A stretch of 63,839 bases of DNA, counting the filler, from Welwitschia mirabilis (taxonomy: Eukaryota): NCBI GenBank assembly GCA_051453625.1. It is 5 parts of one record of this genome, joined end to end, with 100 filler letters (N's around TTAATTAATTAA, not from the genome) between each part and the next. Parts side by side here need not be neighbours in the genome. Positions count along the whole stretch, not along the records: positions 1 to 21,514 come from JBOZIK010000001.1; positions 21,615 to 30,421 come from JBOZIK010000001.1; positions 30,522 to 58,732 come from JBOZIK010000001.1; positions 58,833 to 62,532 come from JBOZIK010000001.1; 1 more part is not named here. One strand, written 5' to 3'. The notes under the pieces are model-generated. The model was not told where the DNA came from and made no database searches. It saw only the letters and a program-made list of their open reading frames with translations. Within the stretch, counting starts at the first letter, position 1. Every line of letters starts with the position of its first letter. Below are positions 17,098 through 62,632 of this stretch, in pieces. The position numbers were made by a program, and so were the translations under genes.

Positions 17098-20000
17098 TGT
17101 TGTGATACCAATTTATGATTATTTGATGGGGTTTTATGAGCAATTTTGTAGGACATTTGCACAAGTTTAGGTGTAATTCTGAGAATTTTAGATAATAAAT
17201 AGAAGATCTTAAAAATGTGAAATTCTTAGCAAGATTTGAGGAATTTAAGGCACATTCTGATACATAGAAATTTGAAGGAATATTATTAATAAAAATGCTA
17301 GATTTTTCTCCTTTAGATGAATAAAGAAGACCATCGTCCCCTTTGTCATCCCCATGATAGGTAGGACGACACACCATTAGATGCTGTTATGAACTGCTAA
17401 GTCATCTGCTGAGTCACCTACTGAGTAATATTTTATAAGAAGCTATTGTCCTCATCATCATTTGGATGATAGTGAAGATGACATTAACAATGTAATTGAT
17501 TCTAATAGCCAACCTATGACTATTTTGTTTATCTCTTATTTGTAATAAAGCATGTATTACAATGCCTTTTGTTTATTATTTTCTAGTCTATAATCCCATA
17601 AATAAGTCCTCCTTTGACTCTCCTCTCCATCTTCATTAGATCAGAAGTTCTCATGATAGGAGATCAAAGGGTGAAAGATCTATCTCAAGTATTACAGAAA
17701 GATGTTCCCTTGGTAGAGGGCTGTGCATCCGTCATTGAGGCCTGGCTATTTTGCAACCTAGATGTTTGATTCTTATTTAATATAAAATTTATTTTCATTT
17801 ATGCATTTAGATTTTTTATATGTCCCTTATGGTTTATGTTGCCTTTGATTTGGTTACAATTTCTTAGGTGATAAGATCTTAAAGGTAGCCTTTGTTAAGG
17901 TTAAAATTAAGTAGTTTACATTTATTTTGCATTTCATTTAGGTTAGGTTGCATTTGAATTTTTATTACATATTTATTTCTGCATTATTATTAAAGTTTGA
18001 TTACCATTCTCTTATGTAAGTCAATCCTTATTCTTCTCTTATAATTCTCTAATGAGATATGAAATTCAGGTTTACTCCCAACTATACGAGTGTGCTATAT
18101 TGTGCAATATATCTATTTTATTTGTGAATGAGAGGATCTCTTTGAGTATAAATATTTATGAAAATACACACCACAACAAATTGATGCTATTGCCAAAAAA
18201 GGTTGCTAAGGAGCATGAGGGTTTTCATTATTTGAGTGAGTAAATTGGATTTCTATTTGGTTATTTATTTGTAGTGATGTTGTATTTTAATTAGGAACCA
18301 TGAGTTTTCTATTTATAGTTTTTTGGTTCTTAGTTTTCAATTTTTTTTATTTTTTAGTTTTCCAATTCTCAATTTTCATTTTTTGATTTTTTAATTTTTT
18401 GGATCTCAGCTTTTATTTTTTTAATTTTTTGATTTTTGGTTTTCATTTTTTTTGGTTTTTTCATTTTTTGGTTCTTATTTTTTATTTTTTATTTTTTTTT
18501 GGTTTTTGGTTCTTTGTAGTCTATAATAATAGTTGTTGTCTCCTCTGTCATCCCCATGATTAGGTGGATGACTACTAATTTTTCTATTCTTTTGCCTTTT
18601 ATTTTTGAATTTTAGATTATAGTTTTCTGTGAGCATAATAATAATTCCATTATCTTCTATGTTATCTACATTATAAAAAGGATGATAATCTGTGTGTTTT
18701 TCTAGTTTTCAATTTTTTACTCTGTTGAATTTTTATTTTCTATTATCCCCTCTGTCATCTCTAGATAGATAGGATGACAGTCTGTTGTTTTTGATTTTCT
18801 TTTTTATTGTTTTCTGATTATATGATACTATGATATGATCAATCTAAAAAAAGAAATGTTAAAGAAAAGGGGCTACTAATAAAACAAGTATCAGAGAAGG
18901 ATCAAGAACATAATCTCTAAATGCATACAATATTTATTCCAAGTTTATTTTTCATTAAAATATTAAATAAAGAAAAACTCGATCCTAATTGTGCAGTTAT
19001 CTTCATCTTGAATTAAATTCTCTTTTTTCATTCTCCTTAATTATGAATTAGTGGTGCAAGGACCCTTCAGGAAATTCTTGCTAAAAGAAGAAGAAACTTG
19101 AAAAACTCTAAGGATAATAGTAAGAAAACACTTTTAGAACTTCTTGCAGAAAGAGGGATAACAACACAAAATGATGTTGAGGGTAGGGATTGAGCCCATT
19201 CCTCTTTTCAAACATATTATTAGTCCCCCTCTCCTTTTCAAACTTTATATAAGAATGAAAATTAAAATATTAAGGATTCAACCTTATACTATCATTTTTA
19301 TCCATTCCATCCATCTCCCATGAACTACTACGAGGAAAAAATGATTGATGAAATGAGGAAAAGTCTAGAAAACACCAATAAAAGCATAGGAAATACCAAT
19401 AAAAAACTAGAAAATTTAGTTGAGATACTTAAACAAATACTATTACAAAATCTAGGGGATAAGCAAAAGAGAAACAATAACAATTCAACTCTATCTTTCA
19501 ATAATAAAGGTAAGGATGACCATTCATTAGATAATGATATTGAGGTATTAGATTATATCCCTAAAATATATTTACTAGATGAAGAATACCTTTATGAAAA
19601 ATTTGAAAATTCTTTAATATATGGTAGACATAATGATAGCATTTCTCCTTCTAATGAAAGTAATAACATACAACAAGATGATGAGAATGATAAAAAAGAA
19701 GAAGATGATGACATTGAAATATTAGACCATATCCCTTATTTTCACATATTTGATAAGGAGGAAGGAGTTTCACCATTAAAATAGGCTTAATTATGAGATT
19801 AATAGAGATAATTACTAAGATAAAATCAATAAAAAAATCAACTCAGTAATATCAACTCAAATAAGGATTACAATTTAGAGTTAACATAATTATTCAGAGA
19901 AGAAAAGAAGTCAGATCAAAAAATATTAGAACATATTTCATAACATAATGAAGACAATGAAAGATTTACTTTTTATAATCTTTTTAATGATCTTTTTGAT

Positions 20001-21514
20001 GAACCCATAACTTAGAAAAGAAAAATAGTCCTCAAAAAAGGGAAAATGAAGAGTAAGATATAATCAATAATAAAGAATAGGAAGATATGATAAGTAAATA
20101 AAGAATTCAATCAAGTAATTCTTTAAATCACATCTTGTCCTTAAACGTAATGATACACATCATTTTAAGGACCTGACTCTAAAAATTTCATAATACTTTT
20201 CTTTGAAAAATTTATGTGCTATAAAAAGTAATATCTTTTGCTCTTTTAAAAAGCCAACTCTACCTTGTGCTTTCAATGATTATTCTTTTCAAAAACAAAA
20301 ACTTGAGATATCTTGAAAATCTAAATTATGACAAGACATGTCTTCTTGATCTAAATCCATGTTTAAAATTAAATGGTAAAGAGCTTCTTAGGTATGTAAA
20401 TCATATCCTAATCACTCATTCCAAAAAGTTTCTTATAACTCCATAGATCTCAAAATAATACCTCCCATGTTCAATATCAAGCTCTGAATGCGATTTATGT
20501 TTTAAATCCTTTATATTATAAGTTTGATAATAGATTGTTATTTCATGAGTTATATGAATTTTTTATCTCTTATATTATTGCTAAATTTCATGAAAATAAA
20601 ATGTCATGTGGTCATTGGAAAAAGCCTTGTTTTCCTACTAAAAATTCATGTCTTGAATAAAATGATAGAGAACATTTTAAAGAGCTTTAAAATCATCTTT
20701 GAGACTTTCTTTGAGACCTTTTCACAAGTTTTTTATAATGATACTCAGGATTCACAAAGTTTTCATAAGAGATTATTTCTCAATAATACTTATCACTCCT
20801 TTATCTCTTATTTGAATTCTGAAATTTGAACTATCAAAGTTTTATCTTTTTATTCCTTCTTATTTTAATTGATTTTACTTAAAAATTATTGTATACCTTT
20901 TATGCTTTATTAATTGATGAACATTTAGTTTGAGTCTTATTTCTCTGAAAATAATTCAAAATAGATCCTTCTTTATTTTTATTTCTTTTCAATAAAAGTA
21001 TTTAATATATTTTAGAATTTGAATAAAATTTTCTAGTGTTGGTGTTTGATTTTTGATTTTTATGATTTTAACTTTGATTTTATTTTCAGTTTCCTATTTT
21101 AACTTTTGATGTATGTCATCTCTTCTGTCATCTCCACAAAAATCAAGATGATAGTCTTTATTTTTATTTTATGCCTTTAGTTTTTTGCTAGCTTTGTATT
21201 TTCTATTGTTGGTTTTTATTTTTATCATCCTCTCTATCATCTAGACGATACGAAGGACGACTTTTAATTGTTTTTTTTGGTTTTCTATTATTTTGAGAAA
21301 ATACATTTTGATGGCTTTATTGAGATTTTTGACTTAATCACTTAAGAATTTTAGAAAGATAGTGGATAAAGGTTAAATTTATTTGAGTAACCATCTGAAT
21401 TTTCTCTTATCTTTTTCTTTGGGGATCATTATGAATTACTTGATCATCTTTTAAACATGACTTATGTATTTATTTTCATGACTAGTCTTTGACTTGGGCA
21501 TTTTATAGTGGTAA
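17098..21514 (+). mobile_element. Non-autonomous Athila-type element B (5' LTR plus interior, ends at a gap)
   Basis: LTR 17098-18178 (TGTTG...CAACA) is followed by the degenerate tRNA-Asp PBS TTGATGCTATTGCC (18181), from canonical TGGCGCCGTTGCC. No pol motifs are visible in the interior. Confidence 0.8.
19060..20830 (+). pseudogene. Decayed gag-derived ORF with an unrecognised C-terminal region
   Basis: The 19320-19784 ORF (DEMRKSLENTNK...LENLVEILKQ) resembles the gag coiled-coil of element E (EEMRKVQEKTNSNIENLVNVL, ~41863). The downstream part recurs at about 21920-22670 (+) and 30542-30780 (-). Confidence 0.6.
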
Positions 21515-21558
21515 NNNNNNNNNNNNNNNNNNNNNNNNNNNNNNNNNNNNNNNNNNNN

Positions 21559-21570
21559 TTAATTAATTAA
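21559..21570. other. Artificial scaffold spacer TTAATTAATTAA inside an N-run (also 30466-30477, 58777-58788, 62577-62588)
   Basis: An identical 12-mer with stops in all six frames is centred in four 100-bp N gaps. Confidence 0.95.
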
Positions 21571-24500
21571 NNNNNNNNNNNNNNNNNNNNNNNNNNNNNN
21601 NNNNNNNNNNNNNNAGAAGAGGGATTTATTATCAAAGAACATAATGAAGAAAGTAAAGAGAGCATTCAACCAAGTAATGATAAAGTCAACACCAAGGAGA
21701 AGAGGAAAAAAGAAAAAGCAATTAAAAATCAAACAAAATTAATAGAGAAAATACTTATACCTTTTAATGAAATAAAATAACTTAAAGAGTATCCACATGT
21801 TTATCCATATCTTACACTTGTACTTTCATGTAAAACCTTAAATGACATTCCTTCATCTACTCCTACTTCCACATTTTCTTGTGATCTTAATAATCATAAC
21901 TTCCTTTCTCTTTTCCATTTAAACATTCAAGTAATTCTCCAAATCACATCCCTATTTTTGAATTTAATAAGATACATCATTTTGAGGAGCCTAATTCAAA
22001 AATGTCTCAACGCTTTTTTCTTTTTATTTTAAAACTTTATGTGCTACAGAATGTAACATCTTTTCCTCTTTTACAAAGTCAACTCTACCTTGTGCTTTTA
22101 GTGATTACTTGTTCCAAAAACAAGACTTGGAATATATTGGAACTCTAAATTAGGTTAAATCTTATCGTCTAAATCCAAATCCATGCTTAGAATTAAATTC
22201 TAAAGATCTTCTTAAGTATGTTAAAACTATCTTAATCACTCATCATAAAAAGTTTCTTTTAAAGCCTTAGTCCTAAATAATACTATTAATGTCTCTTATG
22301 TTTAATATCAAGCTTCTAATAAAATATATGTTTGAAATTATTTACATCATAAGTATGGTAATAGATTGTCTTTCCATGAGTTATATGAATTTTTTGTCTC
22401 TTATATTGCTACTAAATATTATGGAGATAAAATTCCATTTGGTCATGATAATTGGAAAAGGCATTATTTCTTTATTGAAAATTCATATCTTGAATTGAAT
22501 GATAAAAAGCTTCTTAATGTTTCTAGACATTATACAAAGCCCTCAAAATCTTCTTGCATACTTTATTTAAATACTTTCTTACATGCATTATATGATGACA
22601 TGCATGATTTATGTCATTTCAATAATAGATTATTCTTCGATGGATTTATCACTTCTTTATCTCTTATTTAAAATATGAAATTTGAGCTATCAAAGTTTTA
22701 CTTTTAATTGTTTTTACCTTCAATTGTTTTTACTAAAATGTGATTGTACAACTTTTATATTTTATCAAAATTGGTGAATATTTGATTTGGTTTTCATTTT
22801 TCTAAAAGAATGCAATATCCTAGGAACATAGTATTAGGAATAAATCTTTATTTTTCCTTTTTTCAATAAAAGTATTAAATAGATTATAAATTTTAAATAA
22901 AATTTATTTTTAGTTTACTTTGGTATTTCCTTCTTTCTCTTATGTTTTCATGTTTTTTTTAAATTTTAAGAAATAAATTAATCTCTAGATAGCTAGATCC
23001 TTATCTTTTAGAGAGAGTACATTTTTAATGGCTTAGTTGAAATTTTTGATTTGAATACTAAGCAATTTTAAAAAAATGGACAAGGGTTAAAAAATCCATA
23101 AATCATAAAATATTAAACATGATAGAAGCAATTATCTTAAAAGTCATCTTATCACTATCTGAATTCTTTCTTAACTTATCTTTTGGTGGACATCATGCTA
23201 TTACTTGAACATCTTTTAAACTTAAATTATGTTTTATTTATGAAGTTACTATGACTATTAATTTTTTACTTGGTTATTAAAGTGATAAGATTATATTCAC
23301 CTAATATGAAGACATTTAAATATTTATAAACTTTATTTGAAGGAATATTCTTTGATTTTTGTGTTTTCTCTCAATGGTGTGAGACTTTGATTATTGGAGG
23401 TTGTTTTCATGCCAATTTGTGGGAATTTGATGGTGTATTTTGAGTACTTTTGTTGGACATTCATATAAGTTTTGATGAAATACTAATAACTATGAAGAAT
23501 TGATAGTATAATTAGTAAAACATGTGATACTTAGCATTTTTGATAGTTTCTCAGGCTTGTTCTGATATTGTAGAATTGGAAAAAGGACTTCACAAAGTAA
23601 AAACTAATTTACCTTGGAGAAAAGAGTAAAAGAAGACCATCATCCCCATAGTCATTCCCAAGACAACCAGGATGACTAGACTACTAATGTGGACAAAATC
23701 CTATAGCACTGATAGTATGACATGATGCACAGGGTAATAGGGCATCATCTGCATAGTTGTTTGGATGATAGACAAGACGATGGTATTGGAAATATAAGTA
23801 AGAAATACATGGGGCTAACGGTAGCACATGGCACACTACCCAAGCCATTAAGGTGGTGTCGTCCCCTCTATTGTGTGGACAAAAAATAGGACGACAACTA
23901 TTTTTTCATTGCTACAATAAATTTCATTATATAAGGTTTCCAACAATCCATGTGGGTTATTAGGGTTTTTGTTTTCCATCTTTAGGGTTTTTCCTTATTG
24001 CTCCGTCAACTTATGTGTATTTGATAGGGTATTATGAGTTATTTTATAGGTAAATTAATAGATAAATGCTTAGTTCTTATGATAATCAAGAACTGAAATA
24101 AAGAGAATGAAAACATGCAGTTTCCAGATAAATTACAAGAATTTCATGTAGATATGGATAAATAATATTTTGGATAATGATTNNNNNNNNNNNNNNNNNN
24201 NNNNNNNNNNNNNNNNNNNNNNNNNNNNNNNNNNNNNNNNNNNNNNNNNNNNNNNNNNNNNNNNNNNNNNNNNNNNNNNNNNAATGAAAACATGCAGTTT
24301 CCAGATAAATTACAAGAATTTCATGTAGATATGGATAAATAATATTTTGGATAATGATTCTTATAGACAATAAGTGATCATACTAACTGAAGATTGATAA
24401 AAAGCCTGTCATCCACCTCATTGGCCGAATGTCACTAATGGATGGCATCTTAAATAAGAAGATAACAAGTTCACATGCAGTTGATGAGAAGTTAGACTAG

Positions 24501-25699
24501 GAGCTAAACAAATATCTAATTGTCAGCCTTTGTTACCTCCTATATCGTTTGTATGATCTTGAAGATGATACTATTCTCTCATACTTTTATCAAATGTTTT
24601 TTTAAGTTATCACCACTTCTTTACGACTTTACTTTGCATGTCAGCTAGGGTTTCTTCTCTATTTCTCTATGAGTTTTCCTTCCTTTTTTATCTATAAATA
24701 AAGGTCTCCCTCTTAATCCCTAATCATCTTTGATAGTATCTGAGATTCTCGTAATAGGAGATTTTGGGACTGGAGAACCATCTTATAATCTAGAGAGATA
24801 TTACCTTTTTTGTTAGGCGGCGTTTCCTCCATTGAGGAATGACTACTTTGTGATACAAATACCTTTTATGCTTTTAATATGAATTATCTTCTTTTATGTT
24901 TAATATTTATAGGAATTTATTCCTCATAGTTTATGTTGTTTAATATTTATGACAGGTTTCTTCTATTATATAGATTATGAGGACAACCTTTGTCAAGGTT
25001 GAGCTTGATTAAATTAGGTGCATCGTTATTTTTTTCATAGATTTATTTTGCATCGCTATTTCAATTCCATGCATTACAATTTATTTCAGAATATTAGAGT
25101 TACCATTTTCTATCTCAAAATCAATTCTTATATTTCTATACTATTAGACTTCGATGGAATTATGACATTTAGATCACTTTTGACTATACTAGTAAGCCAT
25201 GTTTCTGTATCTTATTTGTAATTAATAGGATTTAGATCAAGGTTTGAACATCACATAAATATGTGCCATAATAAATTGATGTCGTTACTAGGGTAGGATG
25301 CTTAAAGATCAAGAGTTATTGTTGCTTTGATGGATATTTTAGATGTTTGCTACAACAGCAGTGTACTAGTACTTTGTAAGTTTTTTGTTTTAGTTTTTAT
25401 TTTCACTTCCCTTCATCATCCAGATGTCATAGTTAGATGACTGTCCCTTTTCTGCTTTTTCTTCTTTTTTGTGGTTCTATGTTTCTTCCATCTACATTAT
25501 CATCTAGATGATGTATAAGATGATACTTCAGATCTAAGACTGAATGGTTAAGATTGAAAAAGGCAAAAAATATTAAAGAGAGAGAAACCGTTCATTATAG
25601 AAAATATCAAAGAAGGTTTACTAAATTTTGAAATTGAAAATCAAAATAGCCCTGGTAAACTTTAGAATTTCCTAAAATTTTTTATTTTAATTTTGCAGA

Positions 25700-27660
25700 A
25701 GAGTTAGAATCTAATACCATGTCAATCTCTTATCAAAAACAACCTATCTCTTCGAATCCACCCCCTATTATTAGAACCATTACTTTTACTTCTCATTCTA
25801 CTCTAAGAGATCTCATAGCAAATAAAAGACTTTAAATCCAAAACCCCTTCGACTTACCTCTTGGTGATGATTTAGAACTGAAATACCTAAATGCTTATCC
25901 TACCTTTTAAGGAGAACCTGATAAAGATCCTTTACAACACATCGCTGAAATTGAATAACTCATTCTTACTTCTGGAAACGGTAAAAAGTGAATAACTGAT
26001 AGAACCTATATAGTCATTTTTTCCATTACATTATGAGATAAGGCTAAACTTTAGCTTAGAATAATCCCTCATAAGAGCCTGAAATCTTGGAGTCAAATTC
26101 AATAATCCTTTATCAAAAGATTTATAAATAAAACTACCATTCGAAAATGTCAGAAATATGTCACAAACTTCCAATAACTCCCTAATGAAGACTATGCCTC
26201 TGCCTACAAGTGATTCTTTGTTGCTTTACATTCAAACACTGTAGATGCCTTTTCAGAGGTAGAATTAATAGAGTATTTCTATAGTGAGTTAAACAGTCAT
26301 AATAAGTAACTTGTAGATTTCTTTTATGAAGGCAACCTCTTAAACCAAACTTTAGAAGATTCTTGGAAGATTTTAGAAGATTTAGTCGAAGTAAGTCAAA
26401 TTTTTCCAAAACCCTCATCAAGAGAAAATAGAATAGTAGGCCAAATCATTAAGGACTTAAAAGAAGTCAAGCATGAGAAAACTAAAATCAAAATAGAACA
26501 TAAATCAATTAGCATCATTAAGGATTTTACTTCTACCTTAGAAAAATACACCCAGATGATCCTTGATGATAAAGTGGTAACTGAGAAAAGTTAAATTATT
26601 ATTCCAACTTATGATTTATGCGAGGATAGTTATCACATCATGTAAGAGTGTCCTTTACTTCCTATATGTAAAGAGAGAATTTATGAAAATGTTCATGCTT
26701 TAAACCAAAGACCCTCTAACTACATTCAAAACTATAACCAAAGATAAGCCCCAAGTCACAATTTTCAAAATGGAATGAATGAACAACCTAACAATTTTTA
26801 AACACATTATCCTAACTCTCAACTATTTCAAGATAGGTTTGACCATTAAAACTTTCAATCCAACTATCCAAATAACTTGGAAAATCCTTCCAACTTCTAA
26901 AACCATAGCAATCCTCTTAGAAATTATATTGAGAAGTTGAGGTAAACTCAAGAGAAGACAAACACAAACATAGAAAACCTTGTAAACATTCTATAATAAA
27001 CCATGCTTGTCAATCAAAGACCATAAGGGAACCTTACCACTCAACCTTTACCAAACCCTAACAAAGTATGAAAAGATTATAAGGTGATGATAAGGAGTGG
27101 AAATGATACAACTCCCCCTACTCATGAGACTTCAGCTTCCCATAATGATAAGAACGATGAGGAAGAAGACATAGAAATCCTAGAAAATCATTTCTTCCCT
27201 TCTTCACTTAGCAACAAAAAGAAAGATTAGTTCCAACAGAAACTTACTACCCCATGGCTTAATAGGCTTAACATCAACTCCATCATTTCCTTGCACATTT
27301 GTCAATGTTTAGGATTAAAAAAATGAATAAAACCTACAAAAATTTCTTGGAGTTAATCGATTCTTCCATAAAAAGACCTTTAAGTATGATAAAGAACTTG
27401 GTAATTCAAATAGAGAAAGCTTTCTACCCCATAGATGTAGTTATTTTAGAATTTGAGAAACAAAATAGATATCCCCTACTTGTAGGTAGAGCTTTCTATG
27501 CAATAACTTATTGCATCATAGACACAAGAACTAGATTGATGAAATGTCATTTTAAAAATAAACAATTTTCACTATGAGTCTTTGATGCTATTGAAAAAGA
27601 TTTAAGAAATGATTTAGGTTTGGAAGAATATATAAAACCAACCTAATTTTCACAGAACCA
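25700..27660 (+). pseudogene. gag and partial protease of element C
   Basis: gag motif AYPTF*GEPDKDPLQHIAEIE (~25892) and LKSWSQIQ*SFIKRF (~26080). The protease C-terminal half reads IEKAFYPIDVVILE...PLLVGRAF (27410-27495). The catalytic D-x-G-A-S stretch appears deleted near 27270. Confidence 0.85.
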
Positions 27661-28246
27661 TCCAAACCTAAAGCAACTTGTAAAAGACCAAATCATAAAA
27701 ATAATGGTATGCACACATAGAAAATGATTGAAATGACATGAGGACTTTTAGAAATAATTATAAATATAGTAGAAGCATTTGTTCCCTATCCAAGTTCTTT
27801 CTTAGCTTACTCCTTAGTTAAATGTTATAACTTTACCTAATCATTTTTTAAACTTGATTTGTATATTACTTTATAAAAAATCATGTTTAGTTTTATACTT
27901 GCACATTTATAAGTGGTAAGATTGGATTCACCCAATCTTAAGACATTCCCATGTCTATGGACTGTATTTACAAGAAGATACCTTATTTCTTATTTTTCTT
28001 TTAATGGTGGTTAAATCTTAAGTTATCGAGGAGTGTTCTTTCCTATCTTTTACTTTAATTATTCACCTCAGTCTTTCTTAAGTGTGTGATCATGTGGGAA
28101 TAATTCTTTTTGTTCAAAAAAAAAAGGACAAAGAAAGAAAAAAAAGAAAAATATGATGTCCTACTGCAAGTACACCAGCTCAAATATTTCCAAGAGGAGT
28201 CTTTGACAGTGTAATACGATAGCTATGGGAACTCCATTAGGGGGTC

Positions 28247-40600: not shown

Positions 40601-40799
40601 AAAACTTAATTGAAGAAAATATCAGAGAAGAATTAATCGACTTTGACTTAAATCCAAGTATACACACCCTAGGTATGCAAATTCCCAAAATTAAAAAAGA
40701 AAATTTTTTTGCTTTTATTATTTTAGAATTTTATTTTGCAAAAGAAAATTATAGTGTAGAAGGAGATCATATTGTTTCTTTGATAATATTAAATACTTA

Positions 40800-46700: not shown

Positions 46701-46790
46701 ATGAGTCATTTTATGATAAAAGCTTGAACATGATAGAAGTACTTGTCTTGGAAGCCCCTATTCAAGAGGAGGGCCTTCTTTTTGCCATTA
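40800..46790 (+). pseudogene. gag-pol of element E (gag, protease, RT, RNase H, integrase)
   Basis: gag KEDPFQCL (~41002); protease SLINIGASVNIMP (~42477); RT CTNFRKLNEVTKKDHCTLPF and YYFLDGYSNY (43460-43595) and IFMNDFS (~43757); RNase H NKDFELMCNIS (~44497) and LIRWIFLMEEF (~44770); integrase YILVAMDYVIKWVEA (~45398) and AYHSQING (~46135). Order is gypsy-type. Confidence 0.93.
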
Positions 46791-49700: not shown

Positions 49701-51908
49701 GCATTGCATTTACTTGTGTTACTTTCCTTTAAAGATTAAAAAAAACTAAAAATACATCAGAAAAATCAATTCTCTAACTCTAAGCCTAGTGCCTTTATTG
49801 GATTATAACATTTGGGTGAACTCCCATCTATACTAGAGTGTGTTTTCTACAATTTGCATGATTTACAGGTTTACCTAAAGTATTTCTAGATTTCATAAAT
49901 TCACACTACAATAGAGGTGTTCTTTCTTGTTTTTCATCTCATTTCTTTACCTACATCTTTGTGAGTATGTGGTTATGTGGAATTCATTTTGAAGAAGTAT
50001 GTAAAAAAGAAAACAATAGGAAAAAAAGTAAATAATAATAATCATTATCTATAGTTTTCATGCTTAAATACGTGATCACCATGATGTCCTATTACAATGG
50101 AGTAACTTTTCTTGAGAGGTATATTTTATAGTGTTGATAGCTATGGGAACTCTACTATGGGCTTAGTTGGCCATGTTTCATGGGTTTCTACTTCTTTAGC
50201 TATAGTTTTACTTCCCTTATTATGAATTAAAAGAAAATACTTCAAGTCTATGATATTAGTGGTTTTTAAAGTATAATTAGAGACATTGCTTATTTTCTAA
50301 ACTTATTATGCTTATAGTATTCCCACATGGTCATTTCACTTTTGAGGATTTGGATGTGATTTGAGGTGTTAGTAGGTGAGTTCATTTCTAATAGCTTTTA
50401 ATCTTAGCATTTAGTATTTGAAAAAATTAATTACTTAGCATCATCATAATTACTTCCTATTCAAGTAGTACTTTATGAAGTTTTTGCATGATATCATGCA
50501 TCCTTCATTAGGTGATTTTATGATTTTTTTCATGAGGATTTTCTAGGTTTGAATTTAGGGTAGGTAAATAATCTTCTTCATGTTTCTAAATTGTTCATTT
50601 TTATTTTGTTTTTCTTACTTATGTTCTTGGATATTTCAAAGTCATTTCCATACTTTTTCATCATAAATACTTAGGAATTAATTATTTCATAGTTATCTAG
50701 TTAATTTTTGTTTTCATTTGCAATTTTTCTTTCTAAAATGTAATTTTATTTTTGCAAATAACTTTTCTTTAGTTTATGATAATAATTTTTTCAACCTTTT
50801 TGAGTATTAGTTATTTAATTTTCTTCTTAAGTTTTGATTCATGTAGTACTCTTTTTCAATAATTATGAGTTTATGACACACTTATCTTCCTTAGGTTTAA
50901 CCTCCTTATCATGCCTTATTTCTTATAATTCTTAGCCATTTCCCATCTTTTAGACTCTATCATACATTTTTAAAACCTACTTGATGCTATCTAAGATTAA
51001 TTGATTTTGGTAATCATTCCAAATTTTTTGATCTTTTTGAAAAATTCTATCATCCTTTCTATTGTCTAGACGACAAGGCAGATGACATACAGATAATTTT
51101 TAAGTATTAAATCTTTACCTATCATCTGTTCTAGACTATTTTCTAACTTTTATTTCATGAATAGAATTCTGCTCTTAGGCCTACATGTTTTGCTTATTTA
51201 TACTTAACTTACATATGGATCTATTTCCTTCTTATGTTAATGCAATACGAAACATATTGGTTTACCTTTAGGAGGGGGAGGGGGAAATCATATATATATA
51301 TATATAAAGCAAATTTTAAATTTTTTAGAGTTATTTATACATTTTCATGAGACTTATCTAGAATGTACTAATATAATTTTGAATGTCTACTATTTGATTG
51401 GCATATATTATGGATAATGTTTAGTAAAATATGTACTTAACAATATAATACTTGAAATTTGTTTTTCTTGTAGGAATGATGCAAAAAATTCATGGGACCA
51501 TGGATGGGTGAAATAATGTTATGATTGATTATTTTTTATATTTCCTTATAAAGTATGCTTATAAAATCAATGTTTAATCTATGAATATCCTTTTTGAGTT
51601 ATTAGTTTTTTTGATTATATATGTACATCATTTATCTAAGTTATTATGGTCACATCTTATGAAAATTATTTTTGTTATGACATCTATTTTTTATCTTTTT
51701 GATGTGCTAAATGTTTTAAGTGTGGAGTTAATGCATTGGTAATTGTTTTGATCTTATTTTTTAATAAGCATGATTATGGGTAATTAATTTTATAGATTGA
51801 GCTTTAAAAACCTATTATTACCATTATCATCTAGATGACAATCTAGATGAAGCCATAGTCACTCCATCTACTAAAGTAAAATATTTCATTTTATTTAATT
51901 TTTTTAAT

Positions 51909-54900
51909 TATTGTGCTATCAACTTTCATATATTTAATAGGGTATTTTAAGTAGTTTTATAGATTCTTAGATAGATTTATGCTAGAGTTTCCATAATAAT
52001 TAAGATCTGGGATTAATAAAATACAAAAACACTTAATCTCCATGATATTTTACATCATTTAGAGAAGTTTGTAATACTTTCTACTTCTAAGACAGATTTT
52101 CTACAAATATTAAGGCCAATACATTGAAGGAATACTTGTTAAAAGCCCATTGTCCACCTCATCCTTCAGATGACAGTATGGATGATACAACAGCTAAAAC
52201 CAACAAAGATTCTAACTATGATCAACATGGTAGATGACGTGAACTACTTATGAGATGGCATCATCCCCTATATCATCTAGTTGATTAGTAGGATGACATC
52301 TCTTATAATCTCTGACTAAACATTCACCTAACTCTCACATTTGTTTTTTTTTTTTTTTTCTTTTTGGCACAATCATTAGGGGTATGCTCATGCTTGTCTG
52401 TTTATCTTATTGTTATGTGCCTTGTCTTAATAAGTATCAATTCCATCTTCCAGTCTATCTTATCTTTACTTTCATTGAAAATTCTCATGATAAGAGATCA
52501 AAGGGCCAGATATCCATTCTTAGTATAAACATCTTCTTTGGTGTTGGGCTATGCTTCCTTTATTGATGAATGGCTACTTTATAACATGGATGTGGTTTAA
52601 TTAATACAAAGACTTATTTTCCATTTTTTATACTTGTTTATTCTTATTATGCATAGCTTATGTTTCTTGTGAATCAATAATAGTTTTTTAAAGTGATATA
52701 GGTTATGAGAAAAAGCTTTGTAAAAGTTAAACATTATTGGTTTAATTGCATTGCTATTTTATTTCCTAAGTTAACTTTACATAAGTGTGTTACATGGTGC
52801 TTTCTTACATTAAAATTTATTTTTATTGATAGAATATAAAGTTTTTCTTATGGAAGTTAATTCTTTTTCTCTATCCTAGGCCTTTGATAGATTACAACAT
52901 TTGTATCAACTCCTATCTATATTATTCTATTGTGTTATGCAGATATCTAGTTTATTTGTAAATGATAGGATCTTCTTAAGATTAAATTATTTGTATAAAT
53001 ACACGTTATAATATTTTGGTATCATTACCAAGAAAGAATGCTTTGAGTTTAATATTTATCATTACTTTGTTAAGTATTTGGATGTCTAACTCAAAAACAT
53101 AAATGCGTATTCCATTTTTAGTGGAGAACTTAATGAAGATCCTTTATAACACATTGCTACTATAAAACAATTAGTTCTTACTTTAAGAAACGATAAAAAA
53201 AAGTAATAGAACTTACATGATTATCTTTTCCATCACTTTAAAAGGTAAGGATAAATTTTGATTAAAAACAATTTTTCATAAAAATTTAAGATCATGAAGT
53301 CAAGTTTAAGAATCCTTCATTAAAACATTTATGAGTGAAAGCATCATTAGAAAATGTAAGAAATAAGTAACCAATTTCCAATAACTACTTAATGAAGATT
53401 ACACCTATACTTATAAAAGATTTTTTATTTTTTCCCATTCAAATCTTATAGATGCTTTTTCTCAAGAATAATTAGTAAACTACTTTTATAGTGGACTCAA
53501 CAATTAAATAAAGCAACTAGTTGATTTTCCATGTGAAGAAAATTTGTTGAGCCTTACCTTAGAAAATGCTTAAAAAGTGTTAAAAGAGTTGGTAGAAGTG
53601 AGTCAAACTTGGCTTAAACCCTCATCTAGGAAAAACCAAACTGTAGATTAAATAATTATAGATATTAAGAAGGTTAAATAAGAAAAAGAAAAAATAAGAA
53701 CTGAAAATGAAGTAATAAATGTTATTAAGATTTTACCTTAACTTTAGAAAAATACATTAAAATAATTTTAGGTGCAAAGGTGGCAACTGAAAAAAGTGTA
53801 ATTATAGCTCCTACTTGTGATTTGTGTGAAGATAACTATCATGTTACAAAATAGTATCCTTTACTTCTAACTTAAAAATAAATAATCTATGAGGAAGTGT
53901 GTGCCTTCAACCAGAGGTTCTCAAACTTTAACCAAAGCCAAAACCAAAGTTAAATCCAAAATCACAATGACTTTCAACCTAGGATGAGTGGACAACCAAG
54001 TTTAAAATTTTTCAAACAAATCATCCTAATTTCCAACCATTTAAAATGATATTTAAGAATATAAACTTTCAATAAAACAACTCAAATAATCAAGCAATCT
54101 CATCCAACTCATAAAACCAAGCTAATCCTCATAGAAATTCTATTGATGAGTTCAGAAAAACATAAGAAAGAATAAACTCCAACATATAAAATCTTATGAG
54201 CATTTTACGAAAAACCATGCTTGATAACCAAAGTTCATAAGAGTCAATTGTGACTCAACCTTTGTTAAATCCAAATGAAGTTAAGAAAATTATAAGGTCA
54301 TGATAAGAAGTGGAAATGAGATAACTCCTTCCACTCATAAGGCTCACATAAGAAATATTCTACCCCTTTCCTTAATAGATTAAACACAAATCCTATTTTT
54401 AATACTCATTTAAAAGACTTAATGCAAAATATGAGTATTAATTTATCATTTTGGAACTTTTTCAAAAAAATTATAAGTATTTTAAGTTGTGAAAAGACTT
54501 AATTAGAAGGAAATAAAAATGAACCATTCTTAATATAGTCTTCCTAACTTAATCCATTAACAACTTAGTTTTATAAAAATGTCCAAAGTCTAAAGATCTA
54601 GGAGTAGTAACTAATAGCATCAATTTAGAAGAAAATAGAAGGATTAAGAAAGCCTTGATTAATATTAAAGCTAGTGTCAATATTATTCCCTTATACATTC
54701 ATCAAAGACTTGTGTTGAAATATAGAATAGAGCCTACATAGATTGTTTTAGAATTGATTATTTTAGAATTGGCTAATATCTTTGTTAAGAAACCTTTAAG
54801 TGTAATTAAGGAGTTGGTCAATCAAATTGAACAAGCTTTCTAACCTATTGATGTTGTTGTAATAGAACTTAAACATAATAATGGCTATTATTTACTTTTA

Positions 54901-56543
54901 GGTAGAGATTTTTGTGCAATAGCCCATTGTATTATAGATATGAGAACTGATTTAATAAAGTATCATTTAGGGAAAAAATAAATTTTCAATAAGAGTGTTT
55001 AATGCAGTTAAAAAAGATTTAGGAAATGATTTGAGTGTGGAAAAATAAATAAAATCAACTTTATTTTTATATACTATCCACTTGGAAGAAATGGTTAATG
55101 CTTTACAAATCAACTTTGTTTGATAATCAACTAGAAGTAGACAACCTGTATGTTTTTGATAAAGATCAACTTAATTTTGACTATCTAAAAAATAATTATT
55201 TTAATCTAGATAGTGGAGAAACTGAGTATGTTAATTGTGTAGAAGTCTAGAAACTAAGATTTCATATTTTAAGGGTGGTCATCCACTACTAACACCTAGA
55301 TGATAGTCTAAGATGATAGTAAAATTTCTTGAAAATTTAACCAAAAAAAATTTAAACTTAAATATGAATTTAAATCCTTATCTATTAAGTTGAAATACTA
55401 AATAAAGATCTAAACAAAACTTTAATAATTAATAAAGACTTTTTTCCTTAATAAGAATCAAGTCTAATCTCTTTTTTGCAATCTAATGTAAATGCATTTG
55501 CTTGGTTTCATAATGATTTAATTGCCATTTCTACCTTATTTATCTAGCATAAAATATACCTTGAGAACAATGTAAAACGTATTATATAACCCTAACATAG
55601 ACTTAATATTGAAAAACTTGTTAAAGATGAAATTATAAATTAATGGATGTTAGAATCGTTTATGCTATAATTGATAGTGAGTGGGTTAGCCCTTTAATAG
55701 TAGTACCTAAGAAATATAGGAAATGAAGGATGGGCACAGACTTTAGAAAAATGAATAAAGTAATAAAAAATGATTATTATCCTTTACTTTTTCTTGATCA
55801 GATACTTAATAGGATTCAAGGACATACATTTTATTGTTTTTTCGATGGATATAGTGGTACAACCAAGTTTGTATTGCTAGTAAAGAGTATGTTAAAACTA
55901 CTTTTAGTTCACCTTTAGTACTTTCATTTTTTAATGCATGCCTTTTAGGCTTTGTAATGCTTCTAATACTTTTAGCATACTATGATGGTTATTTTTTCTG
56001 ATATACTAGAGGATTAGACTAAAATTATTAATGGATGACTTCTCTATTTATACTAAAATGTTTGAACAAATCTTAGAATGATTAGAGATAGTCATTGATT
56101 GTTACATTTCTAGTGGCTTACAATTGAATTAGGAAAAGATCTTATTTTTAGTTGAAAGTGGAATTGTCCTAGGCCACCATATCTTAAAAGAGGGGATTAG
56201 AATGGACTCTGACAGAGTTGGTATTATTTAAAACTAAATTTCCCTTATAAATGTGAAACAAGCTATACTTTTTCTTATTCATTGTGATTTTTACTATCAC
56301 TTTATTCATGATTATGCAAATATTTATAAACTTCTCTACTCATTACTAAAGAAAGAACTTAAATTTGAATGGAATAAATCTTGTTAGCTTACTTTTGATA
56401 GGCTTAAATTTAAACTTTCTTATGCTTATATTGTAATAGAACTCGATTGGAAAAAAGACTTTGAATTAATGTTTGATATGAGTAATTTTATTATAGATGG
56501 GGTACTTTGTTAAAATATGGAAATGATTTTAAAGTTATATCTT
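51909..56543 (+). mobile_element. Athila-type element G (5' LTR, gag-pol up to RNase H), interrupted by H
   Basis: LTR 51909-53013; degenerate Asp PBS TTTTGGTATCATTACC at 53014; gag GELNEDPL*HI (~53121); protease ALINIKASVNII (~54652); RT DFRKMNK...FFDGYSG (55740-55860) and MDDFS (~56032); RNase H start DWKKDFELM (~56445). Confidence 0.88.
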
Positions 56544-58732
56544 TATTATGACACCAACTTATGTGTATTTAATAGGGTATTTTGAGTTGTTTTGCAGATA
56601 AACTAATAGATAATTACTTAGTTCTTATGACAATTAAGAATTAAGGAGCACAAAACGAAAACATGCAAATATCAAATAAAACACAAGAATTTCATGCAGA
56701 TATGGATAAATAGTATTTTAGATAACTATTCCTACAAACAACAAAGTAATCTGACTAACTAAAGATTAAGAAACGACTATCATCCACCCTGTTGTCCATA
56801 AGATAGTCAGGATAACAACTCTAATAGAGCAATAAATAGAGTTTTTTTGAGATAACTCCTAGTTAAACTGAGATCTTCCTACCAAACATAGTCATCCACA
56901 TCATCGTCCAGACATCACTAGTAGATGACATCTCAAAAACCAGTCAACAACAGTTTACATGCAGTCCGACAATTAGATAAACTGAAGTAGAACTAGAGTT
57001 CTAATTATTGATTCTCATCATCTCCTTCTTCATCTGGATGACCATTAAGATGACATTGTTTGCCCATAGTTTTACCAAATGTTTTCCTGAGTCGTTGTCA
57101 CTTCTTTATGACTTCACTTTTCATGTTAGCTAAAGTTTTTTCCTTTACTTCTCTATCAGTTTCCCTTCCCTTTTTGTCTATAAATAAAGGTCTTTCCCTC
57201 AATCCCTAATCATCTTCGACAATACCTGACATTCTCATGACAAGAGATCTTGGGACCAGAAAACCATCCAGTGATTATAGAAAGACGTTCCCTTAGTATC
57301 GGGTGGCATTTCCTTCATTGAGAAATGGCTACTTTGTAATGCAGACATGTTTATGCCTTTTAATATGAAGTATCCCTTTTTCTTTAGTATATGTAGGAAT
57401 CTCTCCCACATAGTTTATGTTGTTTAAGATTTGTGACAGGTTTCTTTAATTATATAGATTATGAGGGTAACCTTTGTTAAGGTTGAGCTTATTTAGATTA
57501 GGTGCATTGTTGTTCCTTTTCATAGATTAGTTTTGCATCGCTATTTCCATTTCATGCATTATAATTTATTTTAGTAAATTAGGGTTACATATTTTTTTCT
57601 TGAAATCAACTCTTTATTATCCATACTATTGGCTTTCGACAGAATTACGACATTTGAATCACTCTGACTATACTAGTGTGCTATATTTGTGCATATTATT
57701 TGTAATTAACAGGATTTAAATCAAAGCATAAAATATTGCATAAATTTGCACTGCAACAAATTGGTGCTATTGACAGGGAAGGCTGCTTGAAAATTGAGAG
57801 TTGTCATTATTTCAGTGGATATTCTGGATATTTGCTATAGTAGCAATGTACCAGTAGTCTATAAGTATTTTATTTTAGTTTTAAATTTTTACTAACCACT
57901 GACGTCCCTTTCATCATCCAGACATTATAGTCGGATGACTGTTTTCTTTTCTACTTTTTCTCATTCTGTGATTGTCTGTGTTTTCTGTCTCTATCATCTA
58001 GGTTATCATCTGAATGATGATATATAAGACGATACCTTCTGAGAACTAAAACTAAATGGTGAAAATAGGAAAAGGTGAAAAATACCAGAGAGAGAGCCAA
58101 TTCATTACAAAAAATATCAGAGAAGGTTTGCTAAATTTTGAATTTAAAAATCAAAATAGCCTAGGTACAAAAAAATTAGAATTTCCTAAAATTTTTGATT
58201 TTAATTTTGTAGAAGAGTCTGATTTTAATTCTAAAAAATCTAATACCATGTCAACCTCTTACCAAAAAAAACCTATCTTGCCAAATTCAACCCCTCTTAT
58301 TGGAACTATTACTCCTACTCCTCGTGTGCCTCTAAGAGATCTCATAGTAAATAAAAGACTTAAATTTTAAAACCCTTTTGACTTACCTCCAGGTGATAAT
58401 GTAGAACTTAAAAACTTAAATTCTTATCCTATCTTTCGAGGAGAACCTATTGAAAACCCCCTATAACACATCTCTGAAATTGAATAACTCATTCTTACTT
58501 CTAAAAATGGTAAAAAGTGCATAACTAATAGAACTTATATGGTAATTTTTCCCATCACATTACAAGATAAGGATAAACTTTGGCTTAGAACAATACCTCA
58601 TAAGAGCGTAAAATCTTAGAGCCAAGTTTAAGAAGCCTTTATCGAAATATTTATAAATAAAACCACCATTTGGAAATATAAGAAAGAAGTTACAAACTTC
58701 CAACAACTGCCTAACGAAGACTATGCTTCTGC
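56544..58732 (+). mobile_element. Athila-type element H (5' LTR, leader, gag start; same subfamily as C), ends at a gap
   Basis: LTR 56544-57758; PBS TTGGTGCTATTGACAGGGA at 57761; the leader and gag (58056-58732) are collinear with 25280-26205 of element C. Confidence 0.88.
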
Positions 58733-58832
58733 NNNNNNNNNNNNNNNNNNNNNNNNNNNNNNNNNNNNNNNNNNNNTTAATTAATTAANNNNNNNNNNNN
58801 NNNNNNNNNNNNNNNNNNNNNNNNNNNNNNNN

Positions 58833-58914
58833 TAATTGCATCTAAACCTGTATAAATGTCCTACAAAAGTACTCCAAATACACCATCAAATTCCTACAAA
58901 TTGGCATCGTAACA
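58833..58914 (-). mobile_element. Start of a reverse-oriented LTR (D/E subfamily)
   Basis: The reverse complement begins TGTTACGATGCCAATTTGTAGGAATTTGATGGTG, matching the LTR starts at 23402, 30182, 34143 and 48520. Confidence 0.85.
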
Positions 58915-61900
58915 AACAACAATAAATATCTCATTAGAGGAAAACAAAAAGATCATAAGAGCTTTAATTGACATTGGAATAAGTGTTAATATCATTCCAC
59001 TACACATTTTTAAGAGACTTGACTTAGAGGGTAGAATAGAGCCTACTCAAACTATTTTAGAGTTAGTAGACACTTAAGTTAAGAAACCCTTAGGGGTGAT
59101 CAAAGATTTAGTGATTCAAATTAAATAAGTTTACTATCCAATAGATGTAATTATCATAGAAGTTAAACATAACAGAGGGTACCCATTACTTATAGGATAA
59201 GCCTTCTGTGCATAGTCCACTGAATTATTGACATAAGGACATGAATGATGAAGTTTTACCTTAGAAATAAAATATTTACAATTAGAGCCTTTAATGTAGT
59301 TGAAAGATACCTAGGTGATGATGTAATAAACTTAGAAAATAATATTAAACCAATATTATTTATTTAACATTATTCCCTTGAAGAAAGAGAGTTGACTTTA
59401 CATAAGCCTATACTTTATGATGACCCAATTGAGATTAAAAATTTAGAAGCCATTGATACATCCAAATATGATCATAAATTTTTAGATTAGAATAAAAAGA
59501 AATAAAACCCTTATATGGCAAGGAATTCCAACTCTTAAATGAAAACTTATACCTTAAGAAAGATTATCCACTACATGAGCCAGAAATTAAAAATCACAAC
59601 TTGAATTTAAATATGAAAAATATTTTTAGTGAACTAGAACATATTTTCCTTTATAATGATTAAAACAAAACTCTTATAATTAATGAAAATATTTTATCAG
59701 AGTCAACATTAATCTCCCCTTTTACTTCCAAAATTTTTGCTTTCATGAGGTCTCATAGAGTTTATTTATTATCCCTTTTTTTCTCCAATTGATTTTACTT
59801 GAAAATAATCATATACCTTTTATGTTTTATTAATTAACAAACATTTGGTTTATATGTTATTTATTTGAAAGAATGCAATACTTTAAACCATTAAAACAAA
59901 TCCTTCCTTTCTCTAAATAAAATTTTCTAGTTTTGTTATTTCCTTTTCTATTCTTATTTAGATCATTAAAATAGATCCTTCCTTTATTTAAATAAAATTT
60001 ACTAATTTTTCTCTTTCCTTTTTAATTCTTATGATTTTGACTTTGATTTTATTTTTACCTTTCTATTTTGGTTTTCTATGCGTGTTATCCCTTCTGTCAT
60101 CCCCACAATAATCAAGATGATAATCTTTGTTTTCATTTTTTCCCTTTAGTTTTGTATTAGGTTTCTACTTTTTATTTTTACTTTCTATTTCTGTAATCCT
60201 CTTTATCATCTGGACGATGATAAGGATGACTATTAATCATTTTTATTTTTTATTATTTTGTGAAAATACATTTGGATGGATTTGTTAAGTTTTTTGAGTT
60301 AATCACTTAAGAATTTGAGAAAGTTAATGAGCAAAGGCTAAAAATATATGATTAACCGTCTGAATTTTTTCTTATCTTTTTTCTTTAGAGGTCATTATGA
60401 CATTACTTAATTATATTTCAAACATGACTTATTTATTTATTTTCATGACTAGTATTTAACTTGGGCATTTTATAGTGCTAAGATTAAATTCACTTAATCT
60501 TAATACATTCACACATCTATGAACTTTAGTTTGAAGAAAGATACTTTGTTTTAAATATTTTTCTCAATGGTTAAAATATCTTAGATTGTTTAAGAGTGTT
60601 CTTTTCTATCTTTATTTTATTAGTCATGTGGAATGTTTCCATTTGTAGAAGAAGAAGGGAAGAAAAAAGAGAGTGAAATAAGACCATGATGTTTTATATT
60701 TAAGATATTTCAAAAACATGATCAACATGATGTCCTACCACAAGTATATCAGGGCAAATATTTTTAAGAGAAACCTTTGGCAGTGTAATATTATAGCTAT
60801 GGGAACTCCATTGGGAGGTTAGTTGGCCATGCTTCATGGCTCCTTACTTCTTTAATTGTGATTACACTCCCCTCATGATGGATAATAAAATAATAAAAAC
60901 TTAAAGGATATAGGACCTGTGTTATTCTTGGTATCATTAGAGACATTGCTTATTTCTTAGAATCTTAGTCTTTTTACATGATCATTTCATTTTTTAAGAC
61001 TTAGGTGTTTGTTTCAAGATGTTGATAGGTGAGTTCATTTTTTAGTAACTCTTTTTTTTGATTATTTATTTCTTAAAGAATTTTATTTTATCATTATCAT
61101 NNNNNNNNNNNNNNNNNNNNNNNNNNNNNNNNNNNNNNNNNNNNNNNNNNNNNNNNNNNNNNNNNNNNNNNNNNNNNNNNNNNNNNNNNNNNNNNNNNNN
61201 AATCATTTCCTCATTATATGAAATTTGTTATACATCAGATCATGCATTTTTAAATTACGTGATGTTATGATTTATTTCATGAGAATCTGTTAAGTTAAAA
61301 TTTTAGATAGATAGGCCATCTTCTTTATGTTGACTATGTCCATTCTTTTTGTTTTCTTTTATTGTTTGGTTAGTTATTTCAAAGTTATTGCCATATTTTC
61401 TTATCAGCTTAGGACCTTAATACTTATGCTTTCCTTTCTCAATTTTTAATAAAGAATTGATTTCTTAACTAAAATTTTGTGATGTTTATTTTTAGCATTT
61501 TGGATTTCTCAACACTACTCATAATCATTTTATGATGAAACACTTTCATTGTTCACTCTTTTTTTTTTTTTTCATACATCTATATTTTTTAAATCTGACA
61601 TTTTTATACTCAACTTTGTAGTTAATTTAGAAAGTTGTTTAACATTCTAGAATATCCATCATCTATCTTCTTAATCTCATCTACTTTCTTTGGTTTATTA
61701 TCTAATATAGAATGTATTATTTTTCTCAAGAAGGATAGGACCCATTCTCATGGCTCATTTTTAAATTTGAAGTTATTTTAGAGCTTTTATGAGATATAAT
61801 TTTAAAATTTTTACTCTATATACATTATGCATTACATGATATTTTTCTATGAGATTGTTTTTGAGCGTATTTTATAATTTCTAAATGATTTTTGTAAGAT

Positions 61901-62380
61901 AAATTGGCTCACATTTGTGGTTTTTCACCTAGACTTTGTCAGGGACTGATAAAGGCTAATTGAGAGAATATGATGCACCACCAATTTATGGTTATTTGAT
62001 GAGGTTTTATAAGCTATTTTGTAGGACATTTGCATAATTTTAGATGCAATGGTGAGGATTTTGGAGAAAGAATGGAAGATCTTAGAAATGTGTGATTCTT
62101 GGCATAATTTAAAGCATTTGAAACATATTCTAATGCATGAAGGTATGAAAGAAGATTACTAAAAAAAAGGCTAGTTTCTTCTCATTGAAATGAATAAAGA
62201 AAACCATTATCTCTTATATTATTTTCATGACAGGAAGGATGATAATACATTTACATGCTAATTTAGACTACTAAGATACTATTGAGTTCTCTAATCAGTC
62301 ACCTTTTATAATGAGCTTCATGCCCTAGATCATCTAGATGATAATCAGAACAACCCCTATAACTAACTCTAATAGCTGAC
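58915..62380 (+). mobile_element. Athila-type element J: protease, long non-coding 3' region, partial 3' LTR (B subfamily)
   Basis: Protease RALIDIGISVNIIP at ~58958, with no RT or integrase after ~59740. 59760-60480 parallels 20850-21514. A PPT-like tract precedes an LTR at 61971 that aligns with the LTR at 17098. Confidence 0.75.
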
Positions 62381-62532: not shown

Positions 62533-62632
62533 NNNNNNNNNNNNNNNNNNNNNNNNNNNNNNNNNNNNNNNNNNNNTTAATTAATTAANNNNNNNNNNNN
62601 NNNNNNNNNNNNNNNNNNNNNNNNNNNNNNNN

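Follow-up and report, generated by a model that had tools for sequence, protein, structure and literature searches.

In a stretch of Welwitschia mirabilis DNA (GenBank assembly GCA_051453625.1; 63,839 nucleotides, filler included, made of five parts of one record joined end to end and hereafter called the window), a first-pass annotation had pointed to a nested imperfect palindrome recurring some 45 times, about 110 bp apart, in long terminal repeat (LTR) retrotransposons of the Athila family. The question that this locus raises is why so short a motif should return again and again in heavily decayed elements, and what might have read it while the family was active. The recurrence is real: a transition-tolerant scan finds 51 copies (score of at least 34) of a 38-bp box, GTCGTCC-N5-GTCGT-N4-ACGAC-N5-GGACGAC, in which any letter may show C>T or G>A decay. 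All lie within 16672-62354; nearly all fall inside the range first given for them (17330-62352), though the first two, at 16672 and 16783, precede its start. The copies that had been quoted for 21223 and 32281 are both present, at 21224 and 32282.

A nested palindrome of four half-sites

The scan scored every position of the template GTCGTCC-N5-GTCGTCC / GGACGAC-N5-GGACGAC, with slight play allowed in three gaps, an identical letter counting 2, a C>T or G>A change 1 (a half match) and any other change -2. The resulting scores are bimodal (245 matches at 22 or more, 89 at 26 or more, 58 at 30 or more and 51 at 34 or more), and in 1-16600 the same scan reaches 32 at most. Exact 12/0/12 geometry (38 bp) is held by 41 of the 51 copies. 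With the geometry fixed, 42 matches score at least 34, versus none in 100 dinucleotide shuffles and none in the reversed sequence, and 150 permuted heptads gave a median of 0 matches; the two best permutations (17 and 15 matches) become identical to the true heptad after merging of C and T. The heptad GGACGAC, counted exactly on both strands, occurs 12 times where 0.25 are expected (maximum of 2 in 100 shuffles). Autocorrelation of degenerate heptads, for which no template is needed, gives peaks in the same orientation at +12 (31 and 22, against a median of 1) and in inverted orientation at +19 (47), +31 (29) and +7 (16). An artefact of chance or low complexity in AT-rich, transition-decayed DNA could draw on the fact that the degenerate heptad RTYRTYY is frequent by itself (268 forward and 208 reverse matches in 45.8 kb). 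It is, however, refuted by the shuffled and reversed controls, the offset peaks are sharp and the positions of the boxes within LTRs are fixed, and we give this explanation practically no credence. Behind the 51 copies stand approximately 27 distinct sites, many copies being paralogues.

The box is dyad-symmetric and consists of four copies of one half-site, i.e., two GTCGTCC 12 bp apart followed by their mirror image, so that a single sequence recurs at fixed offsets of 12, 19 and 31 bp. Outer heptads and inner GTCGT/ACGAC are kept up to transitions, the purine/pyrimidine class holding in 93-100% of the 41 copies with exact geometry, and the 5-nt gaps and four central letters are free in sequence and fixed in length. 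Centres are of three kinds: CC[CA]C; G[TG]GG, which is the reverse complement of the first; and CTAG, TTGG or TCAA, which are transition products of CCGG. Where the centre is asymmetric, both orientations occur within one element. Pyrimidines predominate in the left N5 (29/41 copies have C at box position 9); the mirror position is random. Beyond two letters on either side of the box the information content drops below 0.35 bit, and the boxes are richer in G+C than their 60-bp flanks (41% vs 31%). An undecayed inner pair, ..ATCGTCCGGACGAC, was seen on one family contig from a public sequencing run.

Between non-orthologous sites the box is far better kept than its flanks. Stem letters of non-orthologous boxes (805 pairs) differ by transversions at 5.0%, a figure biased downwards since the search template tolerates few transversions, whereas at such sites letters approach randomness in the centre (31%), the N5 (36%) and the optimally aligned flanks (31.5%). 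This bias affects neither the bimodality of the scores nor the contrast with centre and N5, two parts that the template does not include. The stem figure equals that of orthologous boxes (4.4% transversions, 15 pairs) and is below that of orthologous flanks (8.6%). Transitions run the other way, reaching 28% and 23% in the stems but 16% in orthologous flanks, which is what methylation of the C/G-rich boxes and their decay after insertion would produce. As the core is better kept than what surrounds it, the box behaves like a cis element kept under constraint during the family's active period, in line with the cis role first suggested for it; that suggestion had been tied to a comparison of motif and flanks, which within the window favors the motif.

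Placement points in the same direction. The elements were mapped by self-comparison, by their primer binding site (PBS) and polypurine tract (PPT) junctions and by a 50-nt probe of the LTR 5' terminus. More than half of the boxes (29/51) sit in 11 LTR copies, each carrying two to four of them about 110 bp apart. Of the 10 LTR 5' ends found by the probe, 9 have their first box at +234 to +240; a second follows at +342 to +357 and, where there are more, the third starts at +437 to +473 and the fourth at about +552. In the tenth probed LTR (23996) a 100-N gap interrupts the distance between LTR start and array; in an eleventh, with the array at 48755, the first box lies about +230 from the junction, so that overall 10 of 11 LTRs have it 229-240 bp from their start. 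The LTR boxes thus occupy 230-590 bp from the 5' end, with 700-900 bp of LTR still to follow. These LTRs fall in at least four sequence types between which the box flanks no longer align.

A possible protein site in DNA or hairpin in RNA

One half-site sequence at fixed offsets, with free gaps and both orientations of the centre, is the pattern of a site bound by a dimer of dimers on double-stranded DNA. Our preferred reading, to which we would give slightly less than an even chance, is therefore a predicted double-stranded-DNA site for a sequence-specific protein, enhancer-like in character. Such a protein would bind the box as a dimer of dimers, and the arrays would serve as multi-site regulatory modules of the element: those of the LTR, whose fixed position in its 5' third suggests that they belong to U3, may be enhancer-like, and those of the leader insulator-like or anti-silencing-like. 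The binder may come from the host or be the accessory protein that the element itself encodes. By analogy, several copies per LTR would match the enhancer-like repeated motifs of other plant LTR elements. The arrays arose by old tandem duplication, after which the half-sites changed almost only through the C>T and G>A decay to which methylated DNA is subject once inserted.

Several points weigh against this reading. The sites come from one window of a heavily decayed draft scaffold, and the downward bias of the stem transversion figure has been mentioned above. We know of no plant factor motif that adequately matches the heptad, including as-1/ocs elements with their 12-bp step. The assignment of the LTR arrays to U3 is inferred from their position in the LTR, and the sites in the leader, the 3' internal part and a coding linker are unusual for enhancers. 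RNA reads of one run, compared with 24283-26200, show no transcription start and skip the box arrays: 235 reads matched, on both strands and only at 24283-24346 and, in the 3' part of the LTR, at 24667-25242; 209 of them are less than 90% alike, and they come from diverged relatives. Moreover, all box sites would be in the genomic RNA, which makes an RNA role possible, and the ten natural copies that were folded take the form of two-stem hairpins at z-scores of -0.35 to -3.9.

These last points lead to the main alternative, namely a hairpin in genomic RNA or minus-strand cDNA with two stems, a 5x5 internal loop and a 4-nt apical loop. It would have a role in packaging, for which the first-pass annotation had also raised RNA hairpins, in dimerisation, in the export of unspliced RNA or in making reverse transcriptase (RT) pause. 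Boxes in the leader, the linker, the 3' internal part and the 5' part of the 3' LTR would all be included in a full-length transcript, the variable letters coincide with the predicted loops, and 7/10 natural copies fold to that shape at z of -2.4 or lower. Its stems, however, are kept by sequence and not through compensatory change. In 41 copies the mirrored N5 positions form 60 Watson-Crick pairs vs 71.6 +/- 5.7 in permuted boxes, and in the 27 site representatives 39 vs 50.7 expected, i.e., there is no N5 covariation (a continuous 38-nt hairpin was rejected for the same reason). That outer and inner stems carry the same sequence invites misfolding and lacks a structural rationale, the asymmetric centre occurs in both orientations within one element, and the loops, where proteins usually contact RNA hairpins, are the unconserved part. 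The lack of covariation together with four identical half-sites favors a protein site in double-stranded DNA, and we consider the hairpin unlikely, albeit deserving of attention. A large inverted repeat spanning whole arrays was also rejected, as no spacer matches the reverse complement of another.

Athila host elements and their arrays

The host family is best described as decayed Athila-lineage Ty3/gypsy elements, an assignment supported by two lineage features, the PBS junction and an accessory open reading frame (ORF) with PF20167, which bear out the label first given to it. A preprint (10.64898/2026.03.20.713144) gives as the hallmark of the ATHILA 5' junction the LTR terminus, an AT-rich spacer of 3-6 bp and the PBS TGGCGCCGTTGCC (tRNA-Asp/Asn). 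Five junctions of the form ..CAACA-AAT/TTT-PBS occur in the window, with the PBS starting at 18182, 25277, 40084, 53017 and 57762; 8-9 of the 13 letters are identical and the remaining differences are transitions, save for one transversion at 57762. The degenerate PBS pattern is unspecific when taken alone (18 chance matches per shuffle), and it is the context of the LTR terminus that makes the five convincing. No tRNA gene was found within the window. Of the PPT-LTR junctions, the two on the plus strand share a purine-rich tract and the minus-strand one (~30190-30215) has a decayed version of it. The best pol region, read with X at stops, gives RT_RNaseH_2 (94.4 bits) and then the integrase tail, which is the gypsy order, and a 76-aa piece of RNase H without interruptions is similar to Streptophyta gypsy clusters only; a Pfam search of 142 stop-to-stop pieces returned copia RT, gypsy RNase H and weak chance matches only.

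One element (23996-39276) is nested. Its LTRs (23996-25273 and 38178-39276) are 84% identical, and it has inserted into another element's 5' LTR, whose two parts now lie at 23402-23996 and 39277-40080 and whose break points share a 5-bp target duplication (TTCCT / TGCCT). The host element continues with PBS (40084), gag, protease, RT, RNase H, integrase and a 3' LTR from about 48524. An element on the minus strand has LTR starts at 34143 and 30182. A terminus of ~50 nt at the LTR 5' end is common to all LTR types of the window and recognisable in purine/pyrimidine code though the remainder has diverged (starts at 16438, 17098, 23402, 23996, 38178, 51909, 56544 and 61971 on the plus strand, 30182 and 34143 on the minus strand); it could seed family searches. 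Equivalent places in two LTR copies (39277-40080 and 49105-49906) hold an (ATTTCC)n microsatellite, at 39792-39870 and 49621-49698. The best-preserved pol carries, across RT and RNase H, a tandem duplication of 312 bp (43876-44506; 2.0 copies, 86% matches); it spans a 10-N gap and may thus be an assembly artefact.

Arrays of two boxes occupy the LTR that starts at 16438 (16672-16709 and 16783-16820; +234, +345), the LTR at 17098-18178 (17333-17482; +235, +347), both LTRs of the nested element (24408-24569 in the 5' LTR, where the 100-N gap lies between LTR start and array, and 38412-38572 in the 3' LTR; +234, +357), the LTR at 51909-53013 (52149-52297; +240, +351; PBS 53017-53029) and that starting at 61971 (62206-62354; +235, +346). 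Three boxes are found at 23639-23895 (LTR start 23402, split at 23996 by the nested element; +237, +342, +456), at 48755-49010 (behind a PPT-type junction at 48505-48523, the LTR starting at about 48524) and at 56779-57054 (LTR 56544-57758; PBS 57762-57774; +235, +347, +473). Two minus-strand LTRs have four each, at 29592-29947 (LTR start 30182, preceded by a PPT-type junction; +235, +343, +437, +553) and at 33554-33908 (LTR start 34143), and these two are partners at 81-87% identity.

Four leader arrays hold eight boxes between 125 and 470 bp past the PBS. They lie at 18535-18686 (353 and 467 bp past the plus-strand PBS 18182-18194, which follows ..CACAACA-AAT; a weaker third box at 18742 scores 31), at 25402-25524 (125 and 210 bp past the plus-strand PBS 25277-25289, whose five differences from the published 13-mer are all transitions; gag homology begins at about 25876), at 40375-40507 (291 and 386 bp past the host element's plus-strand PBS 40084-40096, which follows ..CACCAACA-TTT; a weaker box at 40270 scores 31) and at 57901-58033 (139 and 231 bp past the PBS). 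An array of three at 32282-32530 adjoins a minus-strand gag fragment and is probably another leader array, its context being cut by a 609-N run. Internal pairs at 21115-21261 and 60084-60230 (boxes at 60084 and 60193) are orthologous to each other. Single boxes had been noted in the linker between protease and RT at ~43014 and ~55278; both are present, at 43038-43074 and 55278-55317, as positional partners. Two further single boxes (51049-51086 and 51814-51851) are internal or unplaced.

Consecutive gaps of 90-130 bp account for 25 of 50 where a Poisson model expects 2.0, and gaps below 200 bp (n = 27) average 106.4 bp with a standard deviation of 13.6, in good agreement with the ~110-bp spacing first described; the gaps spread over 85-126 bp and we make no claim that the period represents whole helical turns. 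The spacers of ~70 bp have mostly diverged to near randomness. They had been called dissimilar, and most indeed fail to align: transition-tolerant local alignment, set against shuffles, exceeds z = 3 in 5 of 81 comparisons of spacers or flanks. However, 4 of the 10 comparisons between true inter-box spacers do align (z of 3.4, 4.4, 10.3 and 13.2), and as these four form two orthologous pairs they amount to two independent cases. Tandem Repeats Finder, at score 40, reported none of the box arrays. As some neighboring spacers still align, the arrays are old tandem duplications; they are not a simple decayed tandem repeat, since the core is kept and the spacers are not. The number of units varies, with two at 24408 and 38412 vs three at 56779, and three at 23639 and 48755 vs four at 29592 and 33554.

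Beyond the window, Logan contigs of two DNA runs, from two organisms (at least 80% likeness), were compared with 24283-26200. The matched contigs number 29469 and 26899, so that the family is very abundant in both. Summed word depth, which should not be taken for copy number, has its minimum over the LTR array (2256-2968 vs 11116-135424 beside it) and is also low over the array behind the PBS (652-4390 vs 64042 and 11388-58065). Among the joints listed, 13 of 15 skip 66-136 bp inside these two arrays, each resting on one contig and most being marked 'between: not known'. Low depth and joints fit regions that are hypervariable in spacers and in unit number.

Such variability raises the possibility that the boxes are a functionless by-product of replication, palindromes stalling reverse transcriptase, seeding template switches and thereby making and unmaking ~110-bp units within hypervariable non-coding regions of the sort known from Tat/Ogre/Retand/Athila elements. 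Unit numbers that differ between arrays, joints inside the arrays, homology of some neighboring spacers at z of up to 13.2 and the position of the array bins as the least covered part of the family all agree with it, as does a published hypothesis of abnormal strand transfers. Yet it leaves unexplained both the keeping of one core at unrelated sites amid randomised spacers and the place of the first LTR box, at +229 to +240 across LTR types that cannot be aligned. We regard such an origin without function as rather improbable.

If the boxes are instead protein sites in DNA, a special case is that they are targets of the element's own accessory protein (PF20167 / Athila-domain), serving as a VANC-like or targeting device. 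The accessory ORF, first placed at 36361-37663, is real: a broken reading frame on the plus strand at ~36593-37133, read with X at stops, matches PF20167 (Transposase_32) at 51.1 bits against a cut-off of 45, and is of the Athila-type 3' extra ORF kind. A sunflower study (PMC11728184) places PF20167 in the 3' extra ORF of Athila. In the nested element the ORF is flanked by boxes, two of them 57 bp apart upstream (35534-35631, starting at 35534 and 35591) and one downstream (37971-38008), 207 bp before the 3' LTR start at 38178. The protein would oligomerise on four half-sites and on the phased arrays of the LTR, the leader and the surroundings of its own gene, and would protect the element against silencing or direct it to a chromosomal niche, a scenario that we hold to be a long shot. 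A related Athila domain has been described in print as poorly characterised and predicted to form oligomers, and a DNA-binding extra ORF has been suggested for Retand elements that carry tandem repeats. Against it, Pfam finds no DNA-binding domain at this ORF beyond PF20167 itself. PF03078, the other Athila-type extra-ORF family, was not found. The protein has one relative in a representative library and 11 PF20167 proteins in a larger one, with all 11 of which the ORF aligns, and the fold predicted for one of them from the 11-row alignment is of low confidence, with a pLDDT of only 40.6 and a pTM of 0.20. On balance, we find it improbable that the accessory protein is what reads the box.

Scans of metagenomes gave no locus with the full box. 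The half box matched at 44 loci, each with a single match, no arrays and a G+C content of 46-72%, i.e., unrelated microbial DNA.

Relation to described systems and surrounding sequence

VANDAL elements are DNA transposons whose short arrayed motifs are bound by their own VANC protein. Arrays of motifs in non-coding parts, read by an element-encoded protein (hypothetical in our case), would be common to both systems; VANDAL differs in being a DNA transposon with an unrelated motif and in that binding has been shown there.

The RM boxes of Sireviruses (Ty1/copia), described as palindromic and located upstream of the LTR promoter and next to env (PMC2829016), are dyad-symmetric and CpG-bearing like the box, occur in many copies ahead of the remaining LTR with extra ones by the env-like or accessory gene, and are kept across very divergent elements. 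As far as that account goes, their core is CGG-CCG, whereas here it is GTCGTCC/GGACGAC in a Ty3/gypsy Athila host, with four half-sites at a 12-bp step, ~110 bp between boxes, variable spacers, and further boxes in the leader and the protease-RT linker. The 5' untranslated region of Drosophila gypsy, with 12 Su(Hw) sites and AT-rich spacers between them (PMC2374998), likewise repeats one conserved motif along the leader of a Ty3/gypsy element with env, the AT-rich spacers being variable. There, however, the 12 sites fill 340 bp, and their non-palindromic 12-bp core has a known binder; here two or three leader boxes follow each other at steps of about 100 bp, and the LTR has arrays as well.

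The hypervariable tandem repeats of Tat, Ogre and Retand elements (PMC7004042, PMC11963269, PMC6317226) also consist of arrayed short monomers, found where the non-coding regions of non-chromovirus gypsy elements are expanded, their monomer number varies between copies, and in these publications their function is given as unknown. The published ones are recognisable tandem repeats located mostly between pol and the 3' LTR, whereas here only the 38-bp core is kept and the main arrays lie in LTR and leader. SIRC of Arabidopsis thaliana (PMC10342631) are short repeats, some palindromic, with unrelated spacers, pericentromeric and reported also in ATHILA2 and ATHILA6A. In that report SIRC is a structural label from a CRISPR finder without motif or mechanism, and here some spacers are homologous; the four heptad strings do not occur (0 occurrences) in one SIRC supplement file.

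Palindromic LTR boxes, arrays of protein sites in a gypsy leader, hypervariable tandem repeats and SIRC are thus already in print, as far as these sources go. In the literature searched, subscription journals lying outside the search, we did not find a four-half-site box in Athila at a fixed distance from the LTR end, nor the recurrence of such a box across LTR, leader, surroundings of the accessory ORF and pol linker. The non-coding Athila signals named in the literature that we found are the LTR-PBS and PPT-LTR junctions only. Athila-lineage elements shape plant centromeres and pericentromeres, and a box whose sequence and whose distance from the LTR end persist in non-alignable LTR types is a candidate for regulation or recognition of the family. 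It also offers a seed for finding the family in other genomes and a possible link to the unexplained accessory ORF. Were the accessory protein to read it, this would be a retrotransposon counterpart of VANC and a function for the long-unexplained extra ORF of Athila.

The window as a whole is AT-rich (about 28% G+C), with a CpG observed/expected ratio of 0.09-0.37 from 4 kb on, a sign that C>T decay has gone on for long. It contains 3106 N in total. Four stretches (21515-21614, 30422-30521, 58733-58832 and 62533-62632) are 44N-TTAATTAATTAA-44N linkers; the others are gaps of 100 or 10 N, with flanks in duplicate, or longer runs, as at 24183-24282, 28825-29220 and 45535-45987. Because these are joins in a stitched draft scaffold, neighboring pieces need not adjoin in the genome.

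The first 4 kb (1-4000) differ from the remainder, with 38.7% G+C, a CpG observed/expected ratio of 0.69 and, on the minus strand at 882-1151, a weak hint of glycosyl hydrolase family 1 that stays under the Pfam cut-off; a host gene probably borders the repeat block here. A tandem duplication of ~1.6 kb (3718-5305 vs 5302-6872, 76% identical) also lies outside the Athila block. Further along the box-free part, a Ty1/copia RT fragment on the plus strand (13044-13226; RVT_2, E 2.6e-08) adjoins a 65-bp tandem duplication at 13286-13410.

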